Origin: Terriglobia bacterium
GTDB taxonomy: Bacteria > Acidobacteriota > Terriglobia > Acidiferrales > UBA7541
NCBI GenBank assembly: GCA_963695545.1
Contig: OY968796.1
Span: forward strand, 3,072,001-3,136,000
Length of the DNA stretch: 64,000 nt
Reading direction: 5' to 3'
Notes under the pieces: model-generated
The model's database searches: none
Told to the model about the DNA's origin: nothing
What the model saw: the letters and a program-made list of their open reading frames with translations, nothing else
Program-made: the position numbers and the translations under genes
Part shown: positions 34,474 to 59,528 of the stretch, piece by piece
How the letters are laid out: the number at the start of each line of letters is the position of its first letter
Position numbering within the stretch: position 1 is the first letter of the stretch

Positions 34474-36253
<1,780 letters not shown>

Positions 36254-36296
36254 GTTAGTTTTCGCCGTAACTTAAGATTGCCCCGAGGTAACCTCC

Positions 36297-37151: not shown

Positions 37152-37224
37152 CCGGCCCGCCGGATTCGCGCACGCGCGCCGATTGCAAAACCGCGGCGTC
37201 CCGCATAGTCTAGGACGCGCCCTC

Positions 37225-38064: not shown

Positions 38065-38074
38065 GCCGCCTCAC

Positions 38075-39034
38075 ATGAGCATGGAAACAGCCAAGCGCGT
38101 GTTGCGCATCGAGGCCGCGGCCATCAGCGATCTGATCGCGCGCCTTGATGTGCGATTTACGCAAGCAGTCGATTTGCTGCTCGCGTGCAAGGGACGCGTG
38201 GTCGTCACGGGCATGGGCAAATCGGGACTCGTCGGCAGAAAAATCGCGGCCACGCTGTCCAGCACCGGCACGCCGTCGCTGTTCTTACATCCGGCTGAAG
38301 CGCTGCATGGCGATCTCGGCATGCTCACGCGCCAGGACGCTGTGCTGGCCGTCAGCTACGGCGGCGAAACCGAAGAGATTCTCGCGCTACTCGAAACCAT
38401 CGAGCGGCTCGGCCTGCCGATCATTTCGCTCACCGGCAATCCCAAATCCACGCTCGCCGCCGCGAGTAAGGTTGTGCTCGACATTCGCGTCAGCGAAGAG
38501 GCCTGCTCGCTAAATCTCGCGCCCACGGCGTCCACCGCCGCGGCCATGGCCATGGGTGACGCTCTGGCGATCGCGCTGCTCGAGCGCCGCGGTTTCCGCG
38601 AAGGCGATTTCGCCGCGCTGCATCCAAAGGGCCGCCTGGGAATGAAGTTGTTGCGCGCCGAAAACTTGATGCACTCGGGAGATGCGCTGCCCCGGGTCGA
38701 CCCGTCGACGAAACTGACCGAAGTCATTTATGAAATGAGCAGCAAAGGTCTCGGCATGACCACCGTGATCGACGCCGATGGCCGCTTGGCCGGCATCCTC
38801 ACCGACGGCGATCTGCGCCGCGTGATGCAGAAGCGCGGCCCCGAAGTGTTTCACGCCGTCGCCGGAGAGTGCATGACGCGCGAACCCGCGACGATCGGTC
38901 CCGCGGAACTTGCCAGCCACGCTTTTCGCGTGATGGAAGAGCGCCACATCACTTCCCTCGTGGTCGTGGATGGCGAGCGCCGGCCGCTCGGCGTGCTGCA
39001 CCTGCACGATCTGTGGACGCTCGATCCGTCGTAG
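38075..39034 (+). CDS. kdsD: Arabinose-5-phosphate isomerase (KpsF/GutQ; SIS + CBS)
   Basis: GMGKSG..GRKIAAT.SSTGTP, HPAEALHGDLG, LAPTAST, GDALA, FAALHP.G.LG, CBS pair. Confidence 0.95.
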   Translation: MSMETAKRVLRIEAAAISDLIARLDVRFTQAVDLLLACKGRVVVTGMGKSGLVGRKIAATLSSTGTPSLFLHPAEALHGDLGMLTRQDAVLAVSYGGETEEILALLETIERLGLPIISLTGNPKSTLAAASKVVLDIRVSEEACSLNLAPTASTAAAMAMGDALAIALLERRGFREGDFAALHPKGRLGMKLLRAENLMHSGDALPRVDPSTKLTEVIYEMSSKGLGMTTVIDADGRLAGILTDGDLRRVMQKRGPEVFHAVAGECMTREPATIGPAELASHAFRVMEERHITSLVVVDGERRPLGVLHLHDLWTLDPS

Positions 39035-39053
39035 TCTCTCGGAGGAATCGTCA

Positions 39054-39626
39054 TTGCCAAACAATAAAAAGCCGTTTGCCGCGCCAGTCTCCGCCGCGGT
39101 CGCGCGCCGCGCGCGCCGCATTCGAGTTCTGCTTGTTGACGTCGACGGCGTGCTAACGGACGGCCACGTGTGGCTCCTCTCTCAGCCCGACGGCACGACG
39201 CTCGAGCTGAAAAGTTTTCACTCCCAGGACGGCGCCGGCCTCACGATCTTGAAGCTTGCCGGCTTTCGCACCGGCTTGATCACCGGCCGCGATTCCGCCG
39301 CGGTTACGCGCCGCGCCGCCGAATGTGGAATGGAATTTGTCTACCAGGCCGCGGCGGTGAAGCTCCCGATCTACGAAGAAATCTTGGAGAGGGCCGGCGT
39401 GCACGACGATGAAGTGGCCTACGTCGGCGACGATCTGCCCGACATTCCGGTAATGAAGCGCGTTGGCCTGGCTGTTGCGGTAGCTAACGCCATGCCCGAA
39501 GTGAAGCGCGCCGCGCATTACACCACCGCGCATTCCGGCGGCGATGGCGCCGTCCGCGAAGTCGTCGAGCTGCTTTTGAAATCCCAGGGCCGCTGGGAGG
39601 AAATGATCGGCAAAGCGCGCGCGTGA
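39054..39626 (+). CDS. kdsC: KDO 8-phosphate phosphatase (HAD family)
   Basis: DVDGVLTDG, F...DG.G, ITGR.S, YVGDDLPD, GG.GAVREV; TTG start after GGAGG. Confidence 0.93.
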   Translation: MPNNKKPFAAPVSAAVARRARRIRVLLVDVDGVLTDGHVWLLSQPDGTTLELKSFHSQDGAGLTILKLAGFRTGLITGRDSAAVTRRAAECGMEFVYQAAAVKLPIYEEILERAGVHDDEVAYVGDDLPDIPVMKRVGLAVAVANAMPEVKRAAHYTTAHSGGDGAVREVVELLLKSQGRWEEMIGKARA

Positions 39627-40647: not shown

Positions 40648-42579
40648 GTGGATCATCGAAACGCAAAGCGCTTTTGGATCGCAGGCCTCGTTGCCTGCGC
40701 AACCCTCACCCTGGCGGGGCTTGGCTTTGTGCGATGGCGGGCGCAGCAAGCGCTGAGCAGCTCCGAACGTGAAGTTGCCTCCGAGCAAAATTTGGGCTTC
40801 GTTGTTCGGCCGGTCACCGAAGCCGCCGACAGCAGGTTTGAATGGATCAGCTCTCCGGCAGTCTTCTCCCATGCAGTCGAGTTTCAAGGCCAGTTGTACG
40901 TGAGTGGTCCCGCGGGGCTCTATGAGTTCGGCGCCGACGGCAAGCTCGAGAAGGAGTATCACGCCGGCAAAGATTTGCCATCGTCTCCGCTAACCCGCAT
41001 GGCGACGGCGATCCTGGCCGATTCGGGCCAGCCGGAACTGGTGATCGCGACTAAGAGCGAGGGCCTCGTCGCGTTTAATGGCTCGAGCTTCCGCCAGATT
41101 CGCCCTACAGACGCGGAGAATCGAGAAATCACGGCCATCCTGCCGCTGGCTTCAGGGCAACTCCTGATTGGCACCGCCAAGCAAGGCGTTCTGATCTACG
41201 ACGGAAAGCATCTGGGTCCGTTCCACCCCACACTTTCCGGCATTCACGTCACCGAATTAGCCGGCGATCAATCCGATTTGTGGATCGGCACGATCGATCG
41301 CGGCGTCCTCCACTGGCATGGCGGAGAGACCGACACGTTCGGTGAAGCCGAAGGCCTGCCCGATCCCCAGGTTCTTTCGCTGCTCGTGGCGGACGAGCGT
41401 ACGTTCGTCGGAACCCCGCTCGGCGTTGCCGAATTCCGCCAGGGACGCCTCGAGCGCGTTCTGGCGCAGGGCGCGTTCGCGCAAGCGCTCGGCGCCAGCG
41501 ACGACGCGCTCTTCATCGGCACGCTCGATCAGGGCGTCGTTCGCGCGCCTCTCGCCGCCAATCCGTTTCCGGGTGGGATCGCGCCAGATTCGCAGCAGAT
41601 CGACGATGTCGTGCAAATCTTTAAGTCCTCGGACGGCGTGTATGCGCTGGCGCGGCAGGGCCTTTATGCACTCGGTGAGCGGGGCGGCGGCGCGAAGCAG
41701 CTCATTCAGCCTGCGGAAGCAGCGCTCGCGGACGCGAACGTTTCGGCACTTTCGGTCGACGCGCAAGGCAAGCTCTGGGTCGGCTATTTCGATCGCGGCC
41801 TCGATATCGTCGAAGCTGACGGACGCCGCGCGCGCCACGTGGAAGACGATCGCGTTTTCTGCGTGAACCGCATCGTTCCCGCCCGCGCCGGCGCGGCCAC
41901 CGCCGTCGCCACGGCCAACGGTCTCATCATGTTCGATTCCGACGGCAACGAGCGGCAAATCCTCACGCACGCCGATGGCTTGATCGCGGATCACGTCACC
42001 GATGTCGCCATCGAACCTGACGGCATGGCCATCGCGACTCCGGCAGGAATCACGTTTCTGGGCGCGGATGGCGCGCGCAGCCTTTACGCCTTCGAGGGCC
42101 TCGTCAATAACCACGTGTACGCGCTCGGCGCTTCCGGACAAGAACTGATCGCGGGAACTCTTGGCGGCATCTCCGTCCTCGATCAAGGCCAAATCATCGC
42201 GAACTACACCACCGCAAATTCTGCGCTCGGACACAATTGGATCTCCGCCGTCGTTCCGCTCGGGCGCGAATGGATGGTCGGGACTTACGGCGGAGGCATC
42301 GTGAGGCTCGATGATTCCGGCAAGTTCCATTCCTACGACGTCGCCACAGCCGATTTCGACGTGAATCCGAACGCCATGCTGGTGACCAACGGCCACGTGT
42401 ATGCGGGAAGCCTGGGCCAGGGGCTCTACATTTACGATCGCGGTTCTGACCGCTGGTCGAACGTCACCGCTGGCTTGCCATCGGAAAATGTGACGGCGCT
42501 CGCACAGGACAACGGCTACATCTACGTCGGCACGGACAACGGCCTCGTGCGTGTGCGCGAACAGGATCTCCTGCAATGA
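40648..42579 (+). CDS. Membrane-anchored beta-propeller protein (regulator-propeller-like blades)
   Basis: N-terminal TM helix; repeated blades LWIGT..RGV, TFVGT..GV, LFIGT..QGV, LWVGY..RGL, GL....VT.L, IYVGTDNGL. Confidence 0.8.
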   Translation: MDHRNAKRFWIAGLVACATLTLAGLGFVRWRAQQALSSSEREVASEQNLGFVVRPVTEAADSRFEWISSPAVFSHAVEFQGQLYVSGPAGLYEFGADGKLEKEYHAGKDLPSSPLTRMATAILADSGQPELVIATKSEGLVAFNGSSFRQIRPTDAENREITAILPLASGQLLIGTAKQGVLIYDGKHLGPFHPTLSGIHVTELAGDQSDLWIGTIDRGVLHWHGGETDTFGEAEGLPDPQVLSLLVADERTFVGTPLGVAEFRQGRLERVLAQGAFAQALGASDDALFIGTLDQGVVRAPLAANPFPGGIAPDSQQIDDVVQIFKSSDGVYALARQGLYALGERGGGAKQLIQPAEAALADANVSALSVDAQGKLWVGYFDRGLDIVEADGRRARHVEDDRVFCVNRIVPARAGAATAVATANGLIMFDSDGNERQILTHADGLIADHVTDVAIEPDGMAIATPAGITFLGADGARSLYAFEGLVNNHVYALGASGQELIAGTLGGISVLDQGQIIANYTTANSALGHNWISAVVPLGREWMVGTYGGGIVRLDDSGKFHSYDVATADFDVNPNAMLVTNGHVYAGSLGQGLYIYDRGSDRWSNVTAGLPSENVTALAQDNGYIYVGTDNGLVRVREQDLLQ

Positions 42580-45008
42580 CGCGGAAGCATTTCAGCTTCG
42601 TGTTCACGTTCGCCCTGGCGATTCTGTTCGGAGTGTCGTCGCGGCCGTCGAGCGTCCTCGGCGATGCCGGAGTTTTGCTCCCGAGCGACGAGCAGCAGCC
42701 CGATCCTTCCGTCCTCTCGCTCGAAGAAATGGACGTCACGATCCAAATCGACAACGGCGACGCGCGCGTGTTCATCCGCCAGATATTCGCGAATCACACC
42801 GCGTCGATTCAAGAGGGCACCTACATCTTCGCGCTGCCGAGCCGTGCCACCGTCTCCGATTTCGCCGTGTGGGACGGACCGACGCGCATTCCTGCCGTGA
42901 TCCTCGAACGCAAGCGCGCTCAGGAAATCTACAACGCGCTGAAGGCGCAGGCGATCGACCCCGGCTTGCTTGAGGCGGGCGAAAGCGACAACGCCGAAGC
43001 GACACGCACGAACGTGTTCAACGCCAAAATAACTCCGATTCCCGCGTACGGCACGAAGCGCCTTGAGATCGAATATCACGAAAGTATTCCCGTCGAGAAT
43101 TTGAAATCGTATTTTGTCCTGCCGCTGCATCCCGATGCCTACCACGCGCAAGTGGCCGAGCATTTGACGATTCATTTCGAGCTCGATTCGGCCCATCCCA
43201 TTCTCAATTTTCGATTTGGCGGAAAAACCTACCCGCTCGCGCAGCAGGAAAGCGACGCTCACGGTGTGAAAGGCACGTTCGAGGGGCAGCATGTCCTGCT
43301 GGGCGAGGATTTTTCGATCACCTACCAGCTCGATCCCGCGGGAACGGACAAAGCCCGCGTGCTCACCTACCGCCAGCCCGAATCCGGCCAGCCCAATCCC
43401 ACAGAAATGTCGCCGGAACGAAACGTGCGCGAGCCCGGATTCTTCGAGACCGAAGCGCTTCTCGGATTTGGCAACAGCGCTGTCCCGTCGACCGTTACCG
43501 TCGCCGCGCCCGGCGCGAGCGCAACCGCAGCGCCGCCGAAAACGGTCGTCCTGCTATTCGACACTTCGCTCTCGATGCAGTGGGACAAACTCGAACGCAG
43601 TTATATGGCGCTCGAGCGTATTCTCCATTCGCTCAAGCCCGCCGACAAATTCAATCTCTTGCTCTTCAACACCGAGCTATCGCCGTTCCAGCCGTCGCCG
43701 GTCGCCGCCGATCCCGCCACCATCGAAAAGGCGATCGATTTTGTGCGCGCGAGCCGCCTGCGCGGCGGAACCGATTTGCAGCAAGCTCTTCGGCAAGCGC
43801 TGGCGCAGTGCGCGTCGAACGATTCGCCAGATCCGTACGTGGTACTCCTAAGCGATGGCGGCGCCACAAGCGGCATCGTTCAGAACGGCAAACTTGCTGC
43901 CTGGTACGCAACCGAATGGAAGAAGCTGCCGCCCGCCGAGCGCCCCCGCACATATATTTTCGCCGTCGGAGACGACGCGAATCTTCCGTTGCTCAAGATG
44001 CTCGCGCGCAATGACGGTGTTCTCGAATCCGTGCTTTCCACCGAGCCGGCGGATTTTAAGCTCGATTCCTTTCTCTCGAAAATCGGCCGAAGCCCCGTGG
44101 CCGAACTTGGCATGAACGTAGCTCCGCGAGGCGCGGTGGACCTTGTCTACCCACTGCAGGACAGCGCCTTTGCCGGCTCCGTCGCGTCCTGGGTAGGCGA
44201 ATATCACGAAGCCGCGCGCGGCGTCGCGTTCGATGTGTCCGGTGTGCGCGAAGGCCAGCCATTCGACTTTCGCGAAACCGCCGACTTGCCCGAAAAATCG
44301 CTCGATCATCCGCAGCTGCCGCGGCTCTGGGCCCGCGCGCGCGTCGATGCGTTGCTCGAAAAAATCGAGCGCGACGGCGAGGACCAAGCCACCATCGACG
44401 AAATCGTTCAGCTTTCGCGCAAATATAAACTTGTAACGCCTTACACGTCGTTCCTCGCCGTTCCGCGCGCGCTGCTTCGGCCGCGCGTGATTCGGCCGGG
44501 CGATCCGGTGCTGCGCGTGCGCACCGATGAATCCATCGTCTCGGTCGTCGCGCTATTTCCGTTCGGGCTTGTACAGGAACTGCGCTACTTGCCTCAAGAC
44601 GATATATGGCAGACGCGCTTCCTCGCGCCCGCCGATATGCGCGACGGCACGTACGACGTGCGCCTGATTCTCCGCGACAAACTTGGCCACACATATCGCG
44701 AATCGAAAAGTTTCGTCATCGCCAGCACGCCTCCCACGGTACAAATTCGCCTGGACCGCACGCGATTCCATCGCGGCGAAACCGTGGCGTTGCGCGTGAA
44801 CGCTTCCGAAAGCACACGCACTCTTGTCGCGCGCATGGAAGGCGCCGATTCCACTTTCCTCCACTGGGATTCGCACGCCGGCGCGAACACCGGTCAGATC
44901 GTCGTGCCACCCGACTTGCCCGTAGGAACGTACCCGCTCACCGTCACCGCCGAGGACATCGCGCACAACACCGGCTCGCAAGAGGTGCAAATTGAAATCC
45001 TCCCGTAA
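42576..45008 (+). CDS. Secreted VIT + vWA domain protein with C-terminal Ig-like extension
   Basis: Signal peptide; VIT (QIFAN...EGTYIFALP..A.VSDF...ER.RA.EIY......DPGLLE); MIDAS DTSLS...GGTD...LSDG; LWARARV...LVTPYTSFLA. Confidence 0.88.
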   Translation: MTRKHFSFVFTFALAILFGVSSRPSSVLGDAGVLLPSDEQQPDPSVLSLEEMDVTIQIDNGDARVFIRQIFANHTASIQEGTYIFALPSRATVSDFAVWDGPTRIPAVILERKRAQEIYNALKAQAIDPGLLEAGESDNAEATRTNVFNAKITPIPAYGTKRLEIEYHESIPVENLKSYFVLPLHPDAYHAQVAEHLTIHFELDSAHPILNFRFGGKTYPLAQQESDAHGVKGTFEGQHVLLGEDFSITYQLDPAGTDKARVLTYRQPESGQPNPTEMSPERNVREPGFFETEALLGFGNSAVPSTVTVAAPGASATAAPPKTVVLLFDTSLSMQWDKLERSYMALERILHSLKPADKFNLLLFNTELSPFQPSPVAADPATIEKAIDFVRASRLRGGTDLQQALRQALAQCASNDSPDPYVVLLSDGGATSGIVQNGKLAAWYATEWKKLPPAERPRTYIFAVGDDANLPLLKMLARNDGVLESVLSTEPADFKLDSFLSKIGRSPVAELGMNVAPRGAVDLVYPLQDSAFAGSVASWVGEYHEAARGVAFDVSGVREGQPFDFRETADLPEKSLDHPQLPRLWARARVDALLEKIERDGEDQATIDEIVQLSRKYKLVTPYTSFLAVPRALLRPRVIRPGDPVLRVRTDESIVSVVALFPFGLVQELRYLPQDDIWQTRFLAPADMRDGTYDVRLILRDKLGHTYRESKSFVIASTPPTVQIRLDRTRFHRGETVALRVNASESTRTLVARMEGADSTFLHWDSHAGANTGQIVVPPDLPVGTYPLTVTAEDIAHNTGSQEVQIEILP

Positions 45009-48000
45009 GCCAGCGACGAAAACCCTGCTCGTCTGTGCGGCCGGAATCGCGGCTGTGATCGCTGCGATAGGCACGGCGGCGCGCGGCGAAATTCCCGAGT
45101 GGTTGCAGAATATCGAGTCCGGAACGCCGATTGAAAACGCGCTGTTCCGCTGGATGGAGTTGCCAGGCGGGAAAGTTCCGGCGCTCCGTCCGCCGGCCGA
45201 AGCGCGGCCGCTGCTCGCTGATTTGCTTCACGCGCAGCCCAGCAACGCGGAACTCTATTCTCTGCGCGCCATGGAAGAAGAACAGCAGCTCGATTTTGAT
45301 TCCGCCGAAAAAGATTGGAAATCCTACGCGCAATCCGCCGCCGATCGCACCTCCGCGCAATTGGCGCTCGCCGATTTTTACGCTCGCCGCGCGCGCCCTG
45401 CCGACGAGGTCGCGGCGCTCGCGGCTGTCGCGCAATCGCCGTCGGCTGGATCCGGAAATCTCCTCGCGCCGCAGCAACAACAATCCTGGCTCGCATTCAC
45501 CCGGATTTTCACCGTCATCGCGGCGAATGCGCTTCCTCGGGAAATGTCCGACACCGAATATCAATCCTGGATCACACGTTATCCGCGCGAGACTTCGCTC
45601 TACGCAAAATATTTCGAGTTTCTACTCGATCAGAAAGAATATGGCCGCGCCGCCGCCTTGATCCCGGCATACACCAAGGCCTTTCCAGACGACGCCGTGT
45701 TTCCCGTGAAGGCCCGCGCGCTTCTCGACTACCGGCAGGGAAACGTCGAGCAGGGCCTCGAGGTCTACGATCGCGCCTTCCAGCCGCTCTGGCCCGACGA
45801 ATTGATTCAGGACTACTTCGGCCTTCTCGGCGAAACGCACAGCCTGCGGAAATTCCTCGATGCGTCGCGCGCCGCACACGAAGCCAATCCCGACGATCTC
45901 GATCCGGTCGCGAGGCTCTTTTATTACTACAAACAAGAAGGCAAGCCGGACGCCGCCGAAGAAGTGATCGACGACTTCCGCGCGCACAAGGAGAGCGCCA
46001 GCATTCCGTGGACCGCAGACGAACTCTACACGCTCGCGCGCCTGCTTGAAACCATTCAGGCCTATCCGGAGGCGGGCCGCTACTATCTCGCGCTTTACAA
46101 CGTCCCCGGTGCCTCCGAAAACGAAAATCGCCAGCGATCGCTCGTCGGACTCATCCACATCCTGCTCGCCTGTCCCGATCAACCCCTGCACCTCGGCGCA
46201 GCGGATCTTTCGATGTACAAGGACATCGGCACTGCCGATCCCGGTCCCGGCTTTCTGAACGGCATTCTTTCGCTGCTTTTCAATTCCGAAGATCCGCAAT
46301 CAAGTTTCGCGGAAGAGGAGCAGCGCGGCATTCCATATTTTCACCGCGCGGAGGCGGCCAAGCTTCTGGCGCTTCTCGATGAACAATGTCCCAACGCGCC
46401 CGAACGCGCCGCGCTTCATGCGCAGTTGATCGAAGCCTACGTCGATTACGGCGAAAGCGATGCCGTGATCGCAGGCGGCAAGAAGTTCCTGGCGGACTTT
46501 CCCGATGCGCCGGAAAGAACGCACGTCTCGCTGCTGATGGCGGACGCCTACGCTCGCCTCGGCCAGCCCGACGATGAATTTGCCATCTACGACGCCGTAC
46601 TTCGCGAGCTTGCGCAAAACGCGCAGAATATCCCGCTGGGCGCGGACGCGTCCGGCGAGCAGCAGTGGCAACGGCAGCGCCGCCCGGCTTTCGAGCAGGG
46701 AACGTCCGACGATCTGGATTCGAGCGACGACGCAGGCGCCGAAGGAAATCCCAGCGCGCCCGCCGCAGCCCAGGCCTTCTCGATCGACTCGAACGGGACG
46801 TCGCCGACCAACGGCCCGCGCTCAGTTGAATACTCGAGCGTGCTCGAACGTTACCTCGCTCGTCTCGCCGCGCTCAAGCAACTTCCGCGCGCGCTCGAAG
46901 TGCTGCGCCGCGAAGTGGATCGCAATCCGAATGATCCCGGCCTCTACGAGCGTCTCGCGCAATTCCTGGAGCAAAACCGACTGGACCAGCAGCAGGAAGA
47001 AGTCTACCAGCGCGCCATTCAGCAATTTCCCGATCGCTCCTGGTATCACAGGCTCGCGCGGCTTTATTTGCGCCAGGAACGAGCCGACGAATTCGAGCAG
47101 CTCAGCGATCAAGTCGTGAAAATCTTCGCGGGCAGCGATCTCGAATCCTATTTCAGAGACGTCGTAGCGAGCTATGGTTTCGTCGGACCGCAGCTTTACT
47201 TCCGTCTGAATCTCTACGCCAACCAGCGCTTCCCGCACAATCTGACGTTCGTCCACAATCTTCTGAACGCCTATCACACGCGCGGCACGTACGATGAAGT
47301 CGCCTGGGAAAACCTCCTGCGCCAACATTGGTTCGAGGACGATGGCTTGCGCGCCGAGTACTTCGAGTTTCTCTCGCGCACGAATCAGCTCGATGAAGCT
47401 CTGCAAGCTCTGCGCACGGCCAACCCCGATATCGGGGAGGGGAAGTGGCAGCAGGCGGCGCAGTCAAATCCCGCCGCGGTGCGAATGTTTGCCGAAGCGG
47501 AACTCTGGCGATCGCATTTTGAAAACGGAATGCCCGCGCTGGGCGCCCTGGCCGCCGAATTTCCCGCCGACCGCGATCTTGGCGCCGAAGCTTCCGCGGT
47601 CTACCGCTCGCTGGCCTATTTCGATGGACAGAATACCGAAGCCGCCGTGCGCGTCGAACAGAATCTTCTGCAATCGAATCCCAGCGATCGCGACACGCTC
47701 GCGCGCATCGGCGATATTTATGCCGACCGCGATATGTTCTCTGACGCCGCACCCTATTGGAATCGCATGGCGGAAATCGAGCCAGGCCAGGCCGATTCGT
47801 ATCTTTCCGCCGCCACCGTTTTCTGGGACTACTACAAATTCGACGACGCCTTGCGTCTTCTCGATTTGGGCCGCACAAAACTCGGAAATCAAAATCTTTT
47901 CGCCTACCAAGAAGGAGCGATCTACGAAAACGAGCGCGATTATCCGCGCGCCATCGCCGAATACGTGAAGGGCGCTCTCTCCGACGGCGAGAACTCCGAA

Positions 48001-51000
48001 TCCTGGAATCGCCTGATGGACCTCGCGCACCGTCCGAATCTTAAAGACGTTGCCGATCGCGGCACGGTCCAGATTGTCGACGCGCAAAATCCCACTATCG
48101 CCGAGATTCGGCTCCGGGTGAAAATTCTCGAGGTGCAGGATCGCAAGGCGGATATGCGCGCCTTCCTCCTGGACGAAATCGCGCGCACCGATTCTCTCGA
48201 CCTCGCCGAACAGATCGAAACGCTCGCGCAAGAGCAGTCACTCGAAGACGTTCGCCAACGCGCAATCGAACAGCAAGCCAAATTAACCACCGATCCCGTT
48301 CATCGCCTCGAATTGCGTTACGCGCTCGTCCAGTTTTTCGAGAGCAAGAAGGATTTCGCGCCGGCGCAGACGGAAATCGAAGCGCTCTACCAGGAAAATC
48401 CGAAAATCCTGGGAGTCGTCCGCGCGACCGTCGATTTCTACTGGCAGCAGAAAATGCAGCAGCGCGCCATCGACGTCCTTCAGCAGGCGGCCAAGGATTC
48501 CTATCCGGCCCTTCGCGATAAATTCAATTACGAAGCCGCGCGCAAGGCCACCGACTCCGGAAATTACGCTTTGGCGCAGCAGCTCCTGAATCCTCTGTTG
48601 CAACAATCGCCCTATGACGGTGAATTGCTCGCCGCGATGGCGGACACCTACGCGCGCTCCGGCGATAACGCCGGCCTGCGCGATTTCTACCTCGCGAAGA
48701 TCGCGCTGTTTCGCCAGGCGCCTCTCGCATCCGATGATCGCATCGCGCGCATTGCCGAATTGCGGCGCGGCCTGATCCCCGCGCTCACGCAGTTGAAGGA
48801 TTACGCAGGCGCCGCGGATCAGTACATCGAAATCATCAATCAATTTCCCGAGGACGCGGGCCTCTCGACCGAAGCCGCCCTTCACGCCGAAAAATACGGC
48901 GTGCAATCGCGCCTCACCGCGTTCTACGCCAAAACCGTTTCCGATTCGCCGCGCGATTTCCGCTGGCCCATGGTTCTTGCTCGCCTGCAAACGCAGTTTG
49001 AGGATTACCCCGGCGCAATCGCGTCCTACGCGAAATCGATCGCTGTTCGACCCGATCGCGTGGACCTTTACGAAGCGCGCGCGGATTTGCTCGAGCGCTT
49101 GATGCGCTTCGACGAAGCGGCCGCCGATTACGCGAAGCTCTACGATCTTTCCTATCACGATCAGAAGTGGATGATGAAGGTGGCGGAAGTCCGAGCGCGC
49201 CAGGGCAAGCCCGACGAAGTCGTCGATGCCCTGAAGATCGCGCTCGTCGATGGCCGGCCCGCGGACCCGCAGAATTTCTTCGATGTCGCTCAGTCGCTCG
49301 AATCCTGGGGATATCTCTTGCAAGCGAAAGATTTCGCGCAACAAGGTGCGGACGCCGCCGGCAGAGATTTGCTCGCCAATCCCGCCAATCGCGCCGGCGC
49401 GCAACTCTACGTTCGCATTCTCACGCGCCTTCGCGAATACCCGCAGGCATATGCGCGGCTCGAGGACGCGCTAAGCGCCGCGCAATCGCCGGGTATTTCG
49501 TTCACGTCCACGGTGCAGCAAGTTGAAAAACAGGGCTTCGCCGCCGTCACCGATTCGCAGTGGCGCCAGCGCGAGCAGGAATTGCGCTCCGCATCCGGCA
49601 AGCAGGGAATGGATGCGTGCATGAGGGAGATGGGCGCCGCCGCCGCGCAGTACTTCACGCCGGAAGAGACGTCCGCGTTCTCCCAATTCCTTGCGGGGAA
49701 TCAAACCGCCGGCGCGCCGCCCGATTACTTGATCGACGCCGCCGAAGCCGCCCGCCTTTCGGACCTCGAAGCGCGCTGGCGATATGCCGCCGCACAGTTC
49801 GATGCCCCTGGGAATCTATCGCGCTTGATCCAATTGCAATCCGCGCGGCTGAAGTATTCAGAATTGGGCGCTCAGCTCGAGGAAATTGCGGACCGCACCG
49901 GCAATCAGTATTCGCGTTCGTACGCGTTGCGGAGCGCTGCCGACGCTTATCGCTCGGCCGGAGATCCCCAAAGCGAGTTGCGCATCTATTCCGAGGGACT
50001 TTTTCGCGAAAATGAGCAGCGCTACTTCGAGCTGCTCTTCGAGCTCCAGCGCCAACAGATCGTCGACCTGGCCGGCAGCAGCCAGGGCATCTATTACGAT
50101 TCCGCCGCGAATTTCGCCGTGGCCAGCGGCGATGAAAAGCTCGCGAACGCCGCTATTCAAGCCCACGGCGCTTCGTTGCCTCCCGTGTGGACGAAAGCCT
50201 ACACGGGCCTCACTGGTCTTTTCTATTCCGACGGCGCCGCGAATGTGAACGGTTCGTTCCTGGATATTCTGGATGATCGCCCTATCGGGGAGCGCCTCGG
50301 CCAGAAGCTCGATCTCAATCAGCAGCTCGCCGGAGACGTATGGTTCTACTACGGTTCGCGCTACGGCGAGTATCTCGCCGCCACGCATCAAGGAGATCCC
50401 GAAGATTATCTTCCGGCCTCGCTTGAACAATCGCCCGGCAGCGCCGGCGCATATTTCACAATCGCTGAGTATTATTCCGATGCTGGCGATTCCGCGCGCG
50501 CCATCGCGAATTATCAGTATTCGCTCGAGCTCAATCCCGATCAGCCCAGCGTTTATGACCGCATTGCCGTGCTCGACTGGCAGGCCGGCCAGCACGCTCA
50601 AGCCATCGCCGCGTGGAAGCGCGCTCTCGATCTTCTCGAAAAACAGCAAGCCAAAGGTTCCGTCCCGCAAAGTTTCTGGAGCGATTTCGCTTCCATCGCG
50701 CAGCATTTGGGCCAGCGCAAACTCGCCGCCGAGTTTCGCCCAGGCATGGACGCGCTCTTGCGCGAATATGTCGGCCGCAATGGCTTCTATAACCTGATGC
50801 CGCTGCTGCGCGCCGCGTATTCCTCGCTCAACGATCCCGCCGCCGGCGCCGCGTGGCTCTTAGATCTCTCGTCCGCCACGAACACGCAGGGAACGATTCT
50901 CGCGGAGCTTTCCGACGTGGACTGGATTCCGCTGCGGCAGCGAGAGCCCTTCTTTCAGCGCATAATCGAGCTCAAGCAAACCAACGTCGAAAAAAGTGAG

Positions 51001-52407
51001 GGCGAGCAAAAAGAAAGCGCCCAGGACGAATTGCGCAACTCGCTGGTGCGGTGGATCGAATATCTCGTCGATGTGAAACAGTTCCAGCGTGCCAAAGATG
51101 CGCTCGACGCTCTGCCCGAAGACACCACGAAACTCTCCGCCGACGAACTTGCGCCGCTCGATCTGCGTATCGCCGCCGAACTCAACACCCTCGATTCCAT
51201 CCTCGCTGCGTATCAAGTCGATCCAGAACACGCGCCGTCATTCGACGTCCTCAGTGCCGCCGCAACCAGTCTCGAAAACAACCACGAGCAATCGGCCGCG
51301 CGCAAGATTCTCGAATTCGCCTATTCCCGCGAAATCGCGCGTCACAATCTGAGCGCGACGAACTTCCTCGGCCTCGCCGAGATTCGCCTCGATTCCGGAG
51401 ACACGCCGACCGCGCTCGATCTGCTCAATCGCATGGTTCTCGTCGTCGGCCAGCCCTACGAAAATCTTGACGCCGCCGCGGCTCTTCTCGAATCCTCGCA
51501 TCACCCAGCCGAGGCTGCGGCGTTTCTCGCGCAACTCGTCCGCGCCACGCCGTGGGACCCGAACTATCGCCTGCGCCTCTCGCGCGCGCAGATCGCTGCG
51601 AACCTCGACGCGGCCACCGCGCGCGCGAACATCGCCGCGATCGCCGCGTCGCAAGACGTTTCTTACGCCCTCCGCGCCGACGCCGCGACAGCGCTCGCCG
51701 TCAAATCCCCGAACAGCAATCTCGGCAGCGGAGAACTCAATCTTCTCGCCTCCGGCGCGCCAATCGCGGCCAAGCAAGCGAACGCGGCGTATTTCACGCG
51801 CGCTCGTATCCTGGCCGCTTCTGAAATTCGTGAGGACAGCGAGCGCATCGCGCTCTTGCGCGCCGCACTTGAAGACGCCCCGTCTTCTGACGCCGCGCGC
51901 ATTCAACTCCTCCACGCGGCCGCTGCCAGGCGCGAATATCAGCTCGGCCTTTCCGCTGCTGAGCCGCTACTGAATTCGTTGCAATTTTCCGCCGGTGCGG
52001 CTCAAGCAGACGACGCGCCCGTAGATCAGCCGAACGACGCGCCGGAAGCCTCAGCCGCAACTGATTCTTCCGCACCCGGCGGCCTCTCGCGCGCCGAGCG
52101 CCTCCGCATCGCCATTGACCTTGCAACCGTCACGGAAAATCTCGATCGCCTCGACGACGCGGCCCGCTACCTCGACGCCGCGCAACAACTCGAACGCGAT
52201 CCTGCGCGCCGCGCCGAAATTCGCGAGCACCTGGCGCGCGTGCGCGCCGAAATCGATCGCCGCGCGGCGAACGCCGCCCGCCAGCCGCAAATTCATCGCG
52301 AACTCGAGCAGGACCGCCTCGTGCGCCCTCGGCTGATTGCCGCGTCCGCCGAACCGGCCGCCGCGCCCGAAAATTCGCAACCGCCCGCCGGAGGGAGCAG
52401 GCCATGA
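44992..52407 (+). CDS. Giant (2471 aa) exported TPR / alpha-solenoid protein
   Basis: Uninterrupted 7.4-kb ORF, N-terminal signal/TM, many TPR-like helix pairs (e.g. TLARIGDIYAD, AYFTIAEYYSD.G..A.AIA.Y..SLELNP). Confidence 0.85.
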   Translation: MKSSRKPATKTLLVCAAGIAAVIAAIGTAARGEIPEWLQNIESGTPIENALFRWMELPGGKVPALRPPAEARPLLADLLHAQPSNAELYSLRAMEEEQQLDFDSAEKDWKSYAQSAADRTSAQLALADFYARRARPADEVAALAAVAQSPSAGSGNLLAPQQQQSWLAFTRIFTVIAANALPREMSDTEYQSWITRYPRETSLYAKYFEFLLDQKEYGRAAALIPAYTKAFPDDAVFPVKARALLDYRQGNVEQGLEVYDRAFQPLWPDELIQDYFGLLGETHSLRKFLDASRAAHEANPDDLDPVARLFYYYKQEGKPDAAEEVIDDFRAHKESASIPWTADELYTLARLLETIQAYPEAGRYYLALYNVPGASENENRQRSLVGLIHILLACPDQPLHLGAADLSMYKDIGTADPGPGFLNGILSLLFNSEDPQSSFAEEEQRGIPYFHRAEAAKLLALLDEQCPNAPERAALHAQLIEAYVDYGESDAVIAGGKKFLADFPDAPERTHVSLLMADAYARLGQPDDEFAIYDAVLRELAQNAQNIPLGADASGEQQWQRQRRPAFEQGTSDDLDSSDDAGAEGNPSAPAAAQAFSIDSNGTSPTNGPRSVEYSSVLERYLARLAALKQLPRALEVLRREVDRNPNDPGLYERLAQFLEQNRLDQQQEEVYQRAIQQFPDRSWYHRLARLYLRQERADEFEQLSDQVVKIFAGSDLESYFRDVVASYGFVGPQLYFRLNLYANQRFPHNLTFVHNLLNAYHTRGTYDEVAWENLLRQHWFEDDGLRAEYFEFLSRTNQLDEALQALRTANPDIGEGKWQQAAQSNPAAVRMFAEAELWRSHFENGMPALGALAAEFPADRDLGAEASAVYRSLAYFDGQNTEAAVRVEQNLLQSNPSDRDTLARIGDIYADRDMFSDAAPYWNRMAEIEPGQADSYLSAATVFWDYYKFDDALRLLDLGRTKLGNQNLFAYQEGAIYENERDYPRAIAEYVKGALSDGENSESWNRLMDLAHRPNLKDVADRGTVQIVDAQNPTIAEIRLRVKILEVQDRKADMRAFLLDEIARTDSLDLAEQIETLAQEQSLEDVRQRAIEQQAKLTTDPVHRLELRYALVQFFESKKDFAPAQTEIEALYQENPKILGVVRATVDFYWQQKMQQRAIDVLQQAAKDSYPALRDKFNYEAARKATDSGNYALAQQLLNPLLQQSPYDGELLAAMADTYARSGDNAGLRDFYLAKIALFRQAPLASDDRIARIAELRRGLIPALTQLKDYAGAADQYIEIINQFPEDAGLSTEAALHAEKYGVQSRLTAFYAKTVSDSPRDFRWPMVLARLQTQFEDYPGAIASYAKSIAVRPDRVDLYEARADLLERLMRFDEAAADYAKLYDLSYHDQKWMMKVAEVRARQGKPDEVVDALKIALVDGRPADPQNFFDVAQSLESWGYLLQAKDFAQQGADAAGRDLLANPANRAGAQLYVRILTRLREYPQAYARLEDALSAAQSPGISFTSTVQQVEKQGFAAVTDSQWRQREQELRSASGKQGMDACMREMGAAAAQYFTPEETSAFSQFLAGNQTAGAPPDYLIDAAEAARLSDLEARWRYAAAQFDAPGNLSRLIQLQSARLKYSELGAQLEEIADRTGNQYSRSYALRSAADAYRSAGDPQSELRIYSEGLFRENEQRYFELLFELQRQQIVDLAGSSQGIYYDSAANFAVASGDEKLANAAIQAHGASLPPVWTKAYTGLTGLFYSDGAANVNGSFLDILDDRPIGERLGQKLDLNQQLAGDVWFYYGSRYGEYLAATHQGDPEDYLPASLEQSPGSAGAYFTIAEYYSDAGDSARAIANYQYSLELNPDQPSVYDRIAVLDWQAGQHAQAIAAWKRALDLLEKQQAKGSVPQSFWSDFASIAQHLGQRKLAAEFRPGMDALLREYVGRNGFYNLMPLLRAAYSSLNDPAAGAAWLLDLSSATNTQGTILAELSDVDWIPLRQREPFFQRIIELKQTNVEKSEGEQKESAQDELRNSLVRWIEYLVDVKQFQRAKDALDALPEDTTKLSADELAPLDLRIAAELNTLDSILAAYQVDPEHAPSFDVLSAAATSLENNHEQSAARKILEFAYSREIARHNLSATNFLGLAEIRLDSGDTPTALDLLNRMVLVVGQPYENLDAAAALLESSHHPAEAAAFLAQLVRATPWDPNYRLRLSRAQIAANLDAATARANIAAIAASQDVSYALRADAATALAVKSPNSNLGSGELNLLASGAPIAAKQANAAYFTRARILAASEIREDSERIALLRAALEDAPSSDAARIQLLHAAAARREYQLGLSAAEPLLNSLQFSAGAAQADDAPVDQPNDAPEASAATDSSAPGGLSRAERLRIAIDLATVTENLDRLDDAARYLDAAQQLERDPARRAEIREHLARVRAEIDRRAANAARQPQIHRELEQDRLVRPRLIAASAEPAAAPENSQPPAGGSRP

Positions 52408-54200
52408 GCTATCGCGCCAGCATCGCGCGCCGATGGATCGCCGCGGGCACGGTTGCCGTCTTAGCGGCCGCGCTTTTCGCCTGGGCCGCATCCAAACCGT
52501 CGGCCACGTCCGCACCCTCCGATCCATCGCCGCTCGCCGGCTTCATGCCGCCCGGCGCGATGCTCTACATCGAAGCCAAGGATTTCTCGAGCCTTCTCTC
52601 CGAATGGAACGCTTCGCCGGAAAAACGCCAATGGCTCACGAGCGACAATTGCGAAGCATTTTCGCGCTCGCGCCTTCTCCTGCGCCTCGCCGACGCGCGC
52701 AAAGAATTTGCGTCCGCCGCCGGCGTCTCGCCTGATACGACTCTGCTCTCGCAGGCCGCCGGCAAGCAAAGCGCGCTCGCGCTCTACAACATCGGCAATC
52801 TCGAATTCGTCTACATCTCGCGCGTGCCTTCCGCGGCTGCTATGCAGTCCGCGCTCTGGCAAGCGCGCACGAAATTTGAATCGCGCAGCGCCGCGGGCGC
52901 GCCCTTCTTCGTGCACACCGACGCCGCATCCGGCCGCGTCGTGGCCTTCGCCGTCACCAGCGATTACTTGATCCTCGCCACGCGCGAAGATCTCCTCGCC
53001 GGAACTCTCAATCTCCTAGCCGGCGGCTCAGGCCCGAAACTCACCGGCGAAGATTGGTATGCGCACGCCGTCTCCTCTGCGGGCGCCCCCGGTGATCTGC
53101 GCATGGTTCTCAACGTGGAAAAAATCGCCGCCGATCCCCATTTCCGCAGCTATTGGATCCAGGCGAACGCCAAAGAAATGCGGAATTTTTCGGCCGCCAT
53201 TTCCGATCTCCATCTCAGCGGCAGCACGTATCAAGAGGGTCGCGTGCTCTTGCCGAAGACCGACGATTCCGCACCTACTACTTCCGCGCCCGCTGGCGCC
53301 GCGGACGCGCCGCCCGCCGCAGCGTCAACAAGCGCGCAAGCCGTCGCCGACTTACTTCGTCTCGTGCCCGACGATGCCGGAGTCTATCGCGCCTCCGCCG
53401 ATCCCAGCGCCGATGCCTCTCTCGTCGCGCTGCAAACCAAAATTCTCGCGCCGCACACCGGCTCCGCGCCTCCCTCGAAGCTCGCTCCCGAGGTCAATCT
53501 CACTGCCGGAGAAGTCGGCAGCAGCAGCGATCTAGAAACGCGCATCGATCAGCCGCACGTCCCGCAGGCCAACTCCGTCGACGATTGGTCCGCCCTGCGC
53601 GCCGATCTCCAAGGCGCGAACGTGCAAGCGATGCTTTCGTTCGATTCCACGCGCGTCGATCCGAACACCAACTTCGTCCAAATTAATTCCACGGTCGTTC
53701 TCGCCGCCGCGTCCGATTGGGATGCGACCTCCGTCAACAACGCGCTCTCGCGCGGAATCGCGCAGTCCGCGTCAACCCAACAACTCGGCACATCGTGGAA
53801 GCGCGCCGGCGCCGCGCCGAATGATTATTTTGAGCTCGATGGCCTTTTGCCCGTGCGCGTCGCAACCCGCGGAAAGCTTCTCATCGTCTCGAACGACGCA
53901 GATTCCATCGCCGCAGTTCTCGCTCGCGTGAAATCCCCCTCCTCCGCCGAACCCTCCACTTTCGCCGCCGGCTTTCATCACGCCGCCGAGCAACCCAATT
54001 TTCTTCGCCTGGTCTCCACTCTGGACCGCGCGAATCCGCAGGGCGCGCCAGATTCGCCCGACCCCGGCGTCGAACCTGCATTTTTCTCCGCCAACATCGC
54101 CAGCCTCAGCCGCGTCCTCTCCGGCCTCGATTCCGGATCCGTCGTGATCCGAGAATCCCCGGGCAAGACGCTCGAAACCGTTATCTACCGCTGGAAATAG
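52404..54200 (+). CDS. Hypothetical exported/membrane-anchored protein
   Basis: ATGA overlap with the TPR gene and GGAG RBS; N-terminal hydrophobic helix; alpha/beta body. Confidence 0.75.
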   Translation: MSYRASIARRWIAAGTVAVLAAALFAWAASKPSATSAPSDPSPLAGFMPPGAMLYIEAKDFSSLLSEWNASPEKRQWLTSDNCEAFSRSRLLLRLADARKEFASAAGVSPDTTLLSQAAGKQSALALYNIGNLEFVYISRVPSAAAMQSALWQARTKFESRSAAGAPFFVHTDAASGRVVAFAVTSDYLILATREDLLAGTLNLLAGGSGPKLTGEDWYAHAVSSAGAPGDLRMVLNVEKIAADPHFRSYWIQANAKEMRNFSAAISDLHLSGSTYQEGRVLLPKTDDSAPTTSAPAGAADAPPAAASTSAQAVADLLRLVPDDAGVYRASADPSADASLVALQTKILAPHTGSAPPSKLAPEVNLTAGEVGSSSDLETRIDQPHVPQANSVDDWSALRADLQGANVQAMLSFDSTRVDPNTNFVQINSTVVLAAASDWDATSVNNALSRGIAQSASTQQLGTSWKRAGAAPNDYFELDGLLPVRVATRGKLLIVSNDADSIAAVLARVKSPSSAEPSTFAAGFHHAAEQPNFLRLVSTLDRANPQGAPDSPDPGVEPAFFSANIASLSRVLSGLDSGSVVIRESPGKTLETVIYRWK

Positions 54201-54261
54201 CGAGGCTGGAAACAAGCAAGTTTCCCCGGTTGGCCTATGCTGTTATGCTGTGGTCAGGCGC

Positions 54262-55860
54262 ATGCAAACGCTGCAGGAAAAATTATCGCAGTCCTCCCGC
54301 TTCCTCGTCGGCGCAGAACTCGTATCCGTGCGCGGCTCGATGGCCGAGGACAGCGCCATAAAAGCCCGCACGTTCTCAAACGAACTCGTCGCCAGCCCCG
54401 AAATTGATTGGATCTCCGTCACCGACAACGCTGGCGGCAACCCCCAACTCGCGCCGCTCGCTCTCGGCCGGCCGATTCTTTACGCCGGCAAGGAAGTCGT
54501 AATTCATTTCACCTGCAAGGATCTCAATCGCAACCGACTCGAAAGCGAAGCATGGCTTCTCAACAGCGAGGGCTTTTACAACATCCTCGCCATGACCGGC
54601 GATTATCCCGTCTCCGGAAACGAAGGCCTCGCCAAGCCGGTCTTCGACATCGATTCCGTCGGCCTGATTTCCATGCTCGACAGCATGAACCAGGGACTCG
54701 ATCCGAAGGATGCCGACGGCAAGAGCAAGAACCGGCGCTTGCAGAAAACCCAATTCTGCATTGGCGCGGTCACCACGAATTTCAAATTGCGCGAAGGCGA
54801 AGTGATCCCGCAGTACCAGAAGCTCGAGAAAAAAGTCGAGTGCGGCGCGCAATTCATCATCAACCAAATCGGTTTTGATGCGCGCAAGATGTCCGAGCTG
54901 CGCCTCTACATGGATGCGCATGGAATGAAGCAAACTCCGCTCATCGGCAACGTTTACCTATTAAGTTCGCGTGTCGAACAAATCTTTTTCGAGGGCCAGA
55001 TTCCCGGCGTCGTCGTAAGCCCCGCATTCAACGACCTTTGCCGCAAGCAGGCCCAGTCTCCCGACCGCGGCAAGGCCTTCTTCTCCGAATTCGCGGCGAA
55101 GCAAATCGCCATCTATCGCGGCCTGGGTTATCGCGGCATTTATCTTGGCGGCGTGCACAAATTCTCCGCCATCGAAAATATCCTCGCGATCGAAAAACAC
55201 TTTGCGCCCGACGACTGGAAACAATTCGCGCGCGAGATCAGTTTTTCCCGATCCGGCGAGTATTTTTATTACGCGCGGAACCCAGCCACCGAGCTCGCCG
55301 ATGCCACGAAGCGCGATTCGTCCGCGCCCGTCGCGTCCAAACAGGTCTCTTTCACCTATCAACTCTCCAAGTGGACGCACGACACGATGTTTGCGCCCGG
55401 CACGGCCGTCGCTAAATGGGGCGCGAAAGTCTGCGCGGATTCCAAGGATCCAATGCAAGGCCCGGAGCCGCTGCGCGCGCTGGAAAAAGTGAGCAAATCC
55501 ATTTTGTACCACTGCAAGGACTGCGGCGATTGCTCGCTTCCGGATATCGCGTTCTTATGCCCCGAATCGCAGTGCGCCAAAAATCAGCGCAACGGTCCCT
55601 GCGGCGGCACGCGCGAAGGCCGCTGCGAAGTCGATGGCTTCGGCGATTGCATCTGGCTGCGCGCTTACGAACGCCTGAAGCACGATGGCCGCGAGCAGGA
55701 TTTATTGCAGCACGCCCCCGTCGTTCAAAATCAAGGCCTGCGCGGCAATTCCGCCTGGGCCAATAGCTGGCTTGGCCGCGATCACGCTGCAAAGAGAACC
55801 GACGCCGTTGCTGACGAACCAGCCCTCGAACAAATAAAACCGGCAGAAAACAAAACCTAA
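54262..55860 (+). CDS. Methylenetetrahydrofolate reductase (MetF-like) fused to a C-terminal MetV-like 8-Cys domain
   Basis: AELV, SVTDN.GG, HFTCKD.NR, NILAMTGDYP, KKVECGAQFIINQIGFD; C-terminal CKDCGDC...CPESQC.K.QRNGPCGG...C......CIW. Confidence 0.85.
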   Translation: MQTLQEKLSQSSRFLVGAELVSVRGSMAEDSAIKARTFSNELVASPEIDWISVTDNAGGNPQLAPLALGRPILYAGKEVVIHFTCKDLNRNRLESEAWLLNSEGFYNILAMTGDYPVSGNEGLAKPVFDIDSVGLISMLDSMNQGLDPKDADGKSKNRRLQKTQFCIGAVTTNFKLREGEVIPQYQKLEKKVECGAQFIINQIGFDARKMSELRLYMDAHGMKQTPLIGNVYLLSSRVEQIFFEGQIPGVVVSPAFNDLCRKQAQSPDRGKAFFSEFAAKQIAIYRGLGYRGIYLGGVHKFSAIENILAIEKHFAPDDWKQFAREISFSRSGEYFYYARNPATELADATKRDSSAPVASKQVSFTYQLSKWTHDTMFAPGTAVAKWGAKVCADSKDPMQGPEPLRALEKVSKSILYHCKDCGDCSLPDIAFLCPESQCAKNQRNGPCGGTREGRCEVDGFGDCIWLRAYERLKHDGREQDLLQHAPVVQNQGLRGNSAWANSWLGRDHAAKRTDAVADEPALEQIKPAENKT

Positions 55861-56789
55861 TGACCAAACAACTAAAAGTCGTCGGCGAGTTGATGAACAA
55901 TTCCTACGCCCGCGCGCGCAAAGCCTTCACCGAGCGAAACGTAAAGGACTATCAGCACCTCGCGAAAATCCAAACCGACCTCGGCGCGAGCTATCTCACG
56001 CTGAACATCGACGGCACGCAGCGCATTCAAGTGCGCATGCCTGAAATGCTCGCCTTTCTTCCCGACGTGATCCCCGCCATTCAGGAAGCCACCGCGACGC
56101 CCATCAGTTTCGACAATCCCTCCGTCGAATATCACAAGGTCGCGCTGAAATATTACGATCGGAAAAAGAGCGGCGCCCCCATCCTGAATTCTCTCGCCGC
56201 CTCGCGCCAGCATCTCGACGAAATGATCGACCTCGTCAAGCACTACGACACGCTGGTCATCGTCATGGCCTCCGAACATTTCGTCGACGGCGGCGCGTCG
56301 CAATGCCTCAATCCCCATGACGCCTATCGCGCCGCAAAGCAATTCGTCGAGCTGCTCGTCACCAAGGCCGGCCGCACCAAAGATCAAATCATCATCGACC
56401 CCGGTCTCGCGCCCGTCGGCGCCGATACTTACGGCCTCGTGAACATCGGCCTCGACGCCATGCGCTTGATCAGCGCCGATCCCGATCTCGCCGGCGTGCA
56501 TATGGTCGTCGGCCTTTCCAATTTCGCTTGGGGCACGCCGAAGGGTGTCCGCGAAGAGTTGGAAAAAGCCTATCTCACTTTGGGCATGGAAGTCGGTCTC
56601 GATTTCGCGATCTGCAATCCGGAAAAAACGCCCGGCCCGTTGCCGCCCGACAATCCGATGGTCGCAAAGCTTCGTGAGGCGCTGGCATTGGGCCGCGTGA
56701 AAGATGGCGAGAGCAGTGACATCGCCTGCTTTCGTCAAGTCGAAGCCATCATGGCCATCTGCAACGATTCCAAGCCCGTGGATTCCTAG
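55860..56789 (+). CDS. Pterin-binding methyltransferase (AcsE / MetH folate-domain-like, DHPS fold)
   Basis: VVGELMN, ISFDNP, ILNS, IIIDPG..P, VVGLSNF.WG.P, GLD.AI.NP; TAATG coupling to the upstream gene. Confidence 0.8.
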   Translation: MTKQLKVVGELMNNSYARARKAFTERNVKDYQHLAKIQTDLGASYLTLNIDGTQRIQVRMPEMLAFLPDVIPAIQEATATPISFDNPSVEYHKVALKYYDRKKSGAPILNSLAASRQHLDEMIDLVKHYDTLVIVMASEHFVDGGASQCLNPHDAYRAAKQFVELLVTKAGRTKDQIIIDPGLAPVGADTYGLVNIGLDAMRLISADPDLAGVHMVVGLSNFAWGTPKGVREELEKAYLTLGMEVGLDFAICNPEKTPGPLPPDNPMVAKLREALALGRVKDGESSDIACFRQVEAIMAICNDSKPVDS

Positions 56790-56797
56790 ACGAACGC

Positions 56798-58099: not shown

Positions 58100-58137
58100 T
58101 CGGGGATTACGAGCGCACGTAGACATCCCTCCGACCC

Positions 58138-59343: not shown

Positions 59344-59528
59344 GTGTGTTGACCCCTGAAATGCCGGCTGCATTTAAACAGGAAGCCCCTGCGAAGTCCA
59401 CAGACAATCGCTGGATGGCCGCCGTCCCGCCGGCGCGCACTGATTCCCAGTTTACTGCTCAAGAACTGGGCACAGCCTCAGGCCGAGCAGCCTGACAGTT
59501 TGGGAGCTATCGAGTGATCGACACTTAG

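Follow-up and report, generated by a model that had tools for sequence, protein, structure and literature searches.

An undescribed Acidobacteriota operon of four predicted exported proteins, including an inter-alpha-trypsin-inhibitor-like protein and a giant repeat protein

The described systems closest to the locus reported here are the type II alpha-2-macroglobulin operons, magABCDEF of Pseudomonas aeruginosa and yfaA-T-S-Q-P of Escherichia coli (Yfa/Mag), whose exported products are grouped around a single very large protein. MagB of Pseudomonas holds the protease-trapping macroglobulin MagD (YfaS in E. coli) at the inner membrane and stabilises it (PMC5764988). A second set of relatives is formed by the inter-alpha-trypsin inhibitor heavy chains (ITIH): ITIH4 traps proteases after cleavage of its bait region and needs its MIDAS (metal-ion-dependent adhesion site) to do so (PMC7793589), ITIH1 has a vWA/hybrid arrangement like that of integrin beta, and ITIH heavy chains use a C-terminal Asp to bind polysaccharide (PMC7170535). 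We describe four genes, A to D, at 40648-54200 of a 64,000-nt stretch of DNA (the window) from a Terriglobia bacterium of the phylum Acidobacteriota (GCA_963695545.1, contig OY968796.1, positions 3,072,001 to 3,136,000 of the forward strand). The A-D operon is real and undescribed: no description of it was returned by full-text searches, most subscription papers and all supplements lying outside their coverage, and A-D matched none of the PADLOC anti-phage defence models (0 families). This agrees with an earlier reading of the sequence alone (the sequence-only reading), which had marked these genes as the window's best candidate for an undescribed system.

The A-D operon and its inheritance

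All four genes lie on the + strand and overlap. Gene A (40648-42579) encodes 643 aa when counted from its GTG start, with ATG 40582 and GTG 40624 as in-frame alternatives. It meets gene B (42576-45008, 810 aa) in an ATGA at 42576-42579, B overlaps gene C (44992-52407, 2471 aa from a TTG start) by 17 nt at 44992-45008, and C meets gene D (52404-54200, 598 aa) in an ATGA at 52404-52407. When re-read, the open reading frames, lengths and three junctions were all as the sequence-only reading had listed them. Identities at codon positions 1, 2 and 3 to the relative at locus L034 were.68/.76/.38 for A,.74/.81/.44 for B,.65/.71/.39 for C and.61/.70/.39 for D, and codon-position divergence from L034 and L053 showed that all four are conserved coding genes under purifying selection. 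Furthermore, an N-terminal hydrophobic core (an 11-aa Kyte-Doolittle mean of at least 2.0, in a crude scan without null control) was present in 30/31 family members of A, 16/16 of B, 30/30 of C and 18/18 of D, and the same scan revealed no conserved lipobox and nearly no internal transmembrane-like segment. The A-D products are predicted to be exported, and the N-terminal signal or transmembrane segment attributed to each of them earlier is matched by this hydrophobic core in nearly all family members. Family scans gave no enzymatic family in any of the four, again as first read. A promoter, terminator and RNA scan gave no sigma-70 promoter match, no Rfam match, and 11 terminator-like sites against 18 expected.

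We then considered a class sample of 151 genomes and a phylum sample of 301; these genomes are related, and counts from them overstate independence. D was found in 24/151 class genomes and in 0/19 other members of the window's own family. The order A-B-C-D was kept in 16 of the 18 class loci fetched (from 23 non-self genomes), the other two being cut by a contig end and fragmentary. Of 334 GTDB loci the best 80 were considered; among those with room, C (78/78) and B (68/68) lay upstream of D, and two further genes, E (75/78) and F (73/75), lay downstream. D relatives were mostly labelled Terriglobia or other Acidobacteriota, in keeping with the phylum given for the window. Across the phylum sample D matched 31/301 genomes, 30 of them kept as credible; the match in G281 (22.6 bits, three internal stops) was dropped. 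An orthologue of B, defined as reaching the C-terminal Ig part or being cut by a contig end, was present in 30/30 credible D carriers and in five genomes of family f41 (Holophagaceae), in whose five loci A-B-C is accompanied by a D that has diverged and by E and F fused into one gene; homologues of this diverged D carry the names Holophagaceae, Geothrix sp. and Mesoterricola silvestris.

Twenty D loci of other classes were fetched: 13 showed A-B-C-D in order, 3 were partial clusters and 4 had D alone. In two genomes with D alone (G303 and G413, 99% complete), A, B and C each occurred at separate distant sites, indicating that genomes retain the four genes as a set even where synteny is lost. 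These observations strongly support the view, drawn from sequence comparison, that A-D form a dedicated, co-inherited exported system, as had been suspected: synteny and phyletic co-occurrence extend across Acidobacteriota. The four-gene unit originally described stands as an obligatory core, although the usual operon has six genes, E and F being added. No conserved extra gene besides A-F was evident in open reading frame lists, the neighbours not having been scanned against Pfam.

Some loci departed from this pattern. Two module copies per genome, one clustered and one scattered, were observed in G238 and G249 (L141, L143, L147, L173, L174), where the scattered B adjoins a TPR protein of ~1000-1200 aa, as in G303 and G413. 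At L051 (G029), C and D are fragmented and neither A nor B was detected within 20 kb; the copy may be decaying, or the assembly may contain errors. D at 46-49% identity was also found in Dormiibacterota-, Eisenbacteria-, Verrucomicrobiia- and Baltobacteraceae-titled records (L077, L078, L091, L094, L112); in the E/F tree described below, L078 and L094 group within Terriglobia, so such records may be mislabelled bins or transfers.

Architecture of the four proteins

Profile and model comparisons identify B as a full ITIH heavy-chain homologue with a complete VIT/hybrid/vWA core. Pfam assigned VIT (1.5e-19), VWA and Ig-like domains, and the protein is laid out as a signal peptide, the ITIH core (VIT/hybrid-2, vWA and hybrid-1, residues about 41-626 by profile and model), an invariant Arg/Pro-rich linker and two C-terminal Ig-like domains. 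Its best profile match in the PDB was ITIH4 (E 4e-35), followed by ITIH1 (4e-33); the predicted model (pLDDT 73) gave ITIH1 as best Foldseek match (E 7e-31) and aligned to ITIH1 6fpy with Z 23.8 over 508 residues (VIA-align; root-mean-square deviation, rmsd, 6.2). The VIT-vWA architecture of ITIH heavy chains, recognised in B from the outset, is thus borne out. The hydrophobic core of B passed the 11-aa window and failed a 19-aa window, which fits a cleavable signal peptide.

The canonical MIDAS residues expected of the vWA domain are intact, lying at D329-x-S331-x-S333, T399 and D427 by alignment (43560-43856, + strand); over 96 full-length B rows, which were not dereplicated, these columns were kept in 96/96, 96/96, 92/96, 89/96 and 91/96, respectively. 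An Arg/Pro-rich segment at residues 621-644 (44436-44507, + strand, by alignment), ending in Asp-Pro, is near-invariant, Holophagaceae included, yet residues 625-643 have pLDDT <50 and are disordered in the monomer model, which makes the segment a candidate partner-binding motif. Its Asp-Pro is invariant and is followed by Val, Leu or Ile rather than His; the residue before it is Gly, but Lys or Arg in one family. The self-cleavage motif of ITIH1-3 is Asp-Pro-His, and self-cleavage of B is unsupported since the His is missing. In sum, B has the whole VIT/hybrid/vWA core and canonical MIDAS in common with human ITIH1 and ITIH4, but it ends in a short invariant linker and two Ig domains, without the His after Asp-Pro, the long variable proline-rich region or the bikunin partner of ITIH heavy chains. 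Two variable loops of low confidence (271-283 and 302-317) and weak family-scan matches to ViaA and VWA_CoxE were also observed.

C is a 2471-aa TPR/alpha-solenoid protein with a signal peptide, acidic with a net charge of -109. The Pfam scan found TPRs, in line with the long array proposed for C, and a PDB search returned generic TPR matches only. C is conserved along its whole length in 78 sequences, and its orthologues measure 2.2-2.6 kaa across the phylum.

In A, a signal-anchor at the N terminus precedes an ectodomain of two beta-propellers of the sensor (Reg_prop) type (Pfam Reg_prop, E 1e-11), without a kinase part; its best PDB matches were the propellers of hybrid two-component sensors (3v9f, E 1.6e-12), and its best-conserved part is the C-terminal propeller at about 360-640. 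A Reg_prop-type ectodomain is common to A, hybrid sensors and PorZ, but A lacks Y_Y_Y, a second transmembrane segment, a kinase and a type IX secretion part, and its PorZ score of 30 bits is far below the cut-off of 260. When B(30-722) and A(352-643) were modelled as a complex, the score was 0.01, which we take as neither for nor against an interaction. An apparent A-B fusion in L047 looks like a frameshift artefact.

D matched no Pfam or NCBIfam family, and no Pfam match was found for 26 D members. Its model (pLDDT 78) consists of an N-terminal hydrophobic helix and two PsbP/Mog1-like alpha/beta domains (about 39-209 and 318-510). The best structural match was TP0453 (Z 9.4, rmsd 4.7, 195 aligned), then the PknH sensor domain (Z 8.7); these, DcrB and the Tsi3/TplEi immunity proteins share their fold with both domains of D (Z 9.4 to 4.7), but identity is about 10%, the Z scores are middling, and D is a tandem, membrane-anchored form. 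On the strength of such model matches, no function can be transferred to D. In the ESM Atlas, the clusters nearest that of D were DUF3352 (0.96, 193 shared, on 59% of members) and DUF2138/YfaA (0.96, 180/256 shared), and for a diverged D, DUF3352 was on 15-20% of members. D is a look-alike of DUF3352 and DUF2138 (YfaA/MagB). The fold search had no DUF2138 or DUF3352 structure among its matches, which excludes nothing. An apparent D-E fusion (P0121) looks like a frameshift artefact.

The E/F pair and the Yfa/Mag systems

The fold of E is that of a penicillin-binding transpeptidase, and F is a SpoIID-domain protein. The motifs of E were kept in 104/104 (SxxK), 104/104 (SCN) and 97/104 (KTG) sequences and a Glu column of F in 106/109, both sets containing the window genome's macroglobulin-linked copy twice. 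One glutamate is essential in Bacillus subtilis SpoIID, and in bacteria that do not sporulate, SpoIID homologues work on the peptidoglycan of the septum (PMC6635528). The F column is presumably equivalent to that glutamate. The E profile aligned to residues 42-216 of E. coli YfaQ (HH probability 90; reversed control 0.1) and the F profile to about 186-398 (HH probability 95; reversed control 1.4). YfaQ, which we take to be the MagE counterpart, therefore reads, at the level of profiles, as a fused penicillin-binding-fold and SpoIID protein. E. coli yfaQ (L052:6149-7798) keeps the SxxK and the Glu column, with SCG and KTW replacing SxN and KTG. E and F are likewise fused in 5/5 Holophagaceae loci (about 570-590 aa where the start is clear); these fusions gave no Pfam DUF2300 match and weak pairwise BLAST to YfaQ.

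SpoIID occurred in 34/35 genomes with D or DUF1175 (YfaT/MagC) versus 3/90 without, setting aside two families in which every genome has SpoIID. E and F do not adjoin A-D in the window; the pair is found elsewhere in that genome only, in trans, its one SpoIID gene belonging to an E/F pair convergent on YfaT and a macroglobulin about 340 kb away. As the sequence-only reading had stated, no macroglobulin follows A-D: none lies in the window, and the only bMG10 match in the genome is some 340 kb off. The distant locus (G000:C1:2765510-2774751; L032/L033) contains YfaT, the macroglobulin and a 269-aa gene, convergent on the SpoIID and transpeptidase-fold genes. Its macroglobulin keeps the CxEQ thioester motif, as do those of 14/14 class relatives examined; YfaT-linked (type II) macroglobulins are described as lacking a thioester motif (PMC5764988). 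YfaA was not seen in loci of this type. The 18 DUF1175 loci fetched (21 non-self genomes) included 14 with an adjacent macroglobulin, and none had D or YfaA in the stretch; where there was room (n=11), YfaT-macroglobulin loci carried F in 11/11 and E in 10/11. In a quick tree of 42 E+F pairs (midpoint root; row L276 being a detached pair), all 11 macroglobulin-linked pairs fell in one clade (SH-aLRT 99), which also holds one ABCD-linked pair, L046.

Like Yfa/Mag, the A-F operon comprises six genes whose exported products are grouped around a single very large one, and it has a YfaQ-like transpeptidase-fold and SpoIID module at its 3' end that is fused in Holophagaceae as in YfaQ. YfaA/DUF2138 also resembles D (~560-600 aa, N-terminally anchored) in language-model features and weakly in profile, and is possibly a further link. 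However, ABCD lacks macroglobulin, DUF1175 and YfaP/DUF2135, has in their place a beta-propeller protein, an ITIH relative and a giant TPR protein, and occurs independently of macroglobulin. No Pfam match to YfaP/MagF (DUF2135) was found in A-D, nor did any A-F profile match E. coli YfaP. ABCD does not belong to Yfa/Mag itself but is a remote variant of that kind.

The surroundings of A-D in the window include, by eye, CTP synthase and KDO-pathway-like genes at 34520-39626, among them an exported 284-aa protein without Pfam family (36297-37151). At 54250-59373 lies a cluster of MTHFR-like, pterin-binding methyltransferase and amidohydrolase genes of lower GC (0.57-0.58), followed on the opposite strand by an NAD-dependent formate dehydrogenase-like gene recognised by eye; this cluster was not seen adjoining D in relatives.

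Candidate functions and significance

Complex formation, binding and function of A-D are what we infer. MagB and MagD, trapping by ITIH4 and the vWA arrangement of ITIH1 therefore lead us to favour, tentatively and at somewhat short of an even chance, a periplasmic complex for capture and repair, anchored in the inner membrane and acting together with YfaQ-type peptidoglycan enzymes. A and D would be membrane anchors, D as the MagB analogue, and C would be a scaffold binding D and the invariant Arg-rich segment of B. The vWA/MIDAS of B might grip an intruding protein, or one exposed by damage, at an acidic residue and then switch conformation, like ITIH and integrin vWA domains. The scaffold would position E and F, the latter as a SpoIID lytic transglycosylase, for local peptidoglycan remodelling; in the window genome both would be supplied in trans from the macroglobulin locus. 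The module would fill the role likely held by macroglobulin and YfaT in Yfa/Mag loci, B and C replacing macroglobulin in envelope protection.

Several observations weigh against a capture-and-repair complex. The MIDAS is degenerate in 5/5 Holophagaceae B proteins although the operon is kept, and elsewhere shows a few single-position losses; metal-dependent capture is therefore not universal. E and F are absent downstream in L053 and L068, and SpoIID was not found in G151, G155 and G121, the first two being metagenome-assembled genomes of unknown completeness; one query also failed to find E in G303. Either ABCD functions partly without E and F, or these assemblies are incomplete. MagE affects MagD processing, but it formed no stable binary complex with MagD in vitro (PMC5764988). 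Kinship within the samples inflates the co-occurrence statistics. D overlapped DUF1175 in 4/24 genomes (3.5 expected) and bMG10 in 6/24 (4.9 expected), which is chance level (Fisher p 0.75 and 0.58). Macroglobulin and YfaT are not part of the module, with macroglobulin adjacent in 1/80 loci and DUF1175 in 0/80; the sole adjacent macroglobulin-like gene (L078:13543-18939, - strand) is convergent on the A-F operon. We accordingly rejected A-D as a detached part of the genome's own macroglobulin system; the lack of co-occurrence beyond chance points to an alternative core.

The link between D and YfaA is also weak. hhalign gave a probability of 9.8 (P 0.003, 140 collinear columns), rising to 43 for the first halves (reversed control P 0.19). 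Block-shuffled controls, one of which outscored the true alignment, kept real local blocks and hence provide no valid null. Single sequences or shallow profiles gave nothing significant, the DUF2138 Pfam model matched 0/301 phylum genomes, and a metagenome scan for diverse YfaA yielded near-identical E. coli copies only, which were not used. Profile evidence for homology of D and YfaA is only suggestive. The Yfa/Mag connection first proposed for A-D therefore holds for the YfaQ-like E/F module, with its SpoIID gene F, and possibly, though weakly, for D and YfaA (DUF2138), but not for co-occurrence with A2M and DUF1175, which is at chance level.

An unlikely alternative is that B is an ITIH4-type protease trap, cut in a bait region and holding the protease through its MIDAS, with A, C and D anchoring and presenting it. 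ITIH4 as the best PDB sequence match of B, its position in an operon linked to YfaQ, in which the other core is a protease trap, and its two variable loops argue for such a trap. However, the post-core segment of B, at the position of the ITIH4 proline-rich region, is short and near-invariant, whereas macroglobulin bait is described as variable (PMC7793589), and the MIDAS is lost in Holophagaceae. Furthermore, 20 further genomes without D have generic VIT-vWA matches only, so the fold alone does not imply trap function.

A constitutive peptidoglycan-remodelling scaffold, unrelated to defence or damage and with a role like that of NlpI or CpoB, also seems unlikely. It would explain a TPR scaffold with E and F of intact motifs, the septal action of SpoIID homologues mentioned above, and module sequences that are conserved rather than hypervariable. 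The patchy distribution of the module, missing from most class genomes and from the window's relatives within its family, and the loss of E and F in some carriers fit a core division role poorly, and the ITIH architecture of B is left unexplained.

Export or display of a surface polymer or adhesin is improbable. C would be a TPR conduit of the PelB/BcsC type, with E and F opening the peptidoglycan; the very long periplasmic TPR protein, the resemblance of A to sugar-sensing and PorZ propellers, and the invariant Asp-Pro of B, recalling the C-terminal Asp of ITIH heavy chains, are consistent with this. Against it, family scans found no glycosyltransferase, porin or beta-barrel family in A-D, no conserved extra gene was evident in the lists described above, and the Asp-Pro lacks its His and, in one family, the preceding Gly. 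Finally, although vWA/MIDAS proteins often partner MoxR ATPases (PMC9976466) and B has its weak ViaA and VWA_CoxE matches, it is very improbable that B is the client-recognition vWA partner of a MoxR-type AAA+ chaperone assembling the other proteins, as export, predicted for B, would take it away from ATP, and A, B, C and D follow one another with no intervening gene, E and F coming directly after.

A broader proposal, which we consider rather unlikely, is that Acidobacteria have two interchangeable periplasmic defence cores, a macroglobulin and an ITIH homologue on a TPR scaffold with an integrin-like propeller partner, plugging into one YfaQ-type repair module. If true, bacteria would here have their first example of an ITIH-based trap for proteases or effectors, and the arrangement would parallel the pair of trap families found in animal plasma.

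New here are the phylum-wide range of the module, its obligatory four-gene core, the homology of E/F to YfaQ and their fusion, the presence of E/F at macroglobulin loci too, and an occurrence that does not depend on macroglobulin. This uncharacterised 0.5-MDa envelope module is carried by roughly one in ten of the Acidobacteriota genomes sampled (35/301), its relatives occur in a named cultured species, and it offers a testable handle on the role of secreted bacterial VIT-vWA (ITIH-like) proteins and of YfaQ/MagE. YfaQ, read as a fused protein serving two unrelated scaffolds, would tie Yfa/Mag-type systems to peptidoglycan remodelling, in parallel with the tie of PBP1c to type I macroglobulins.

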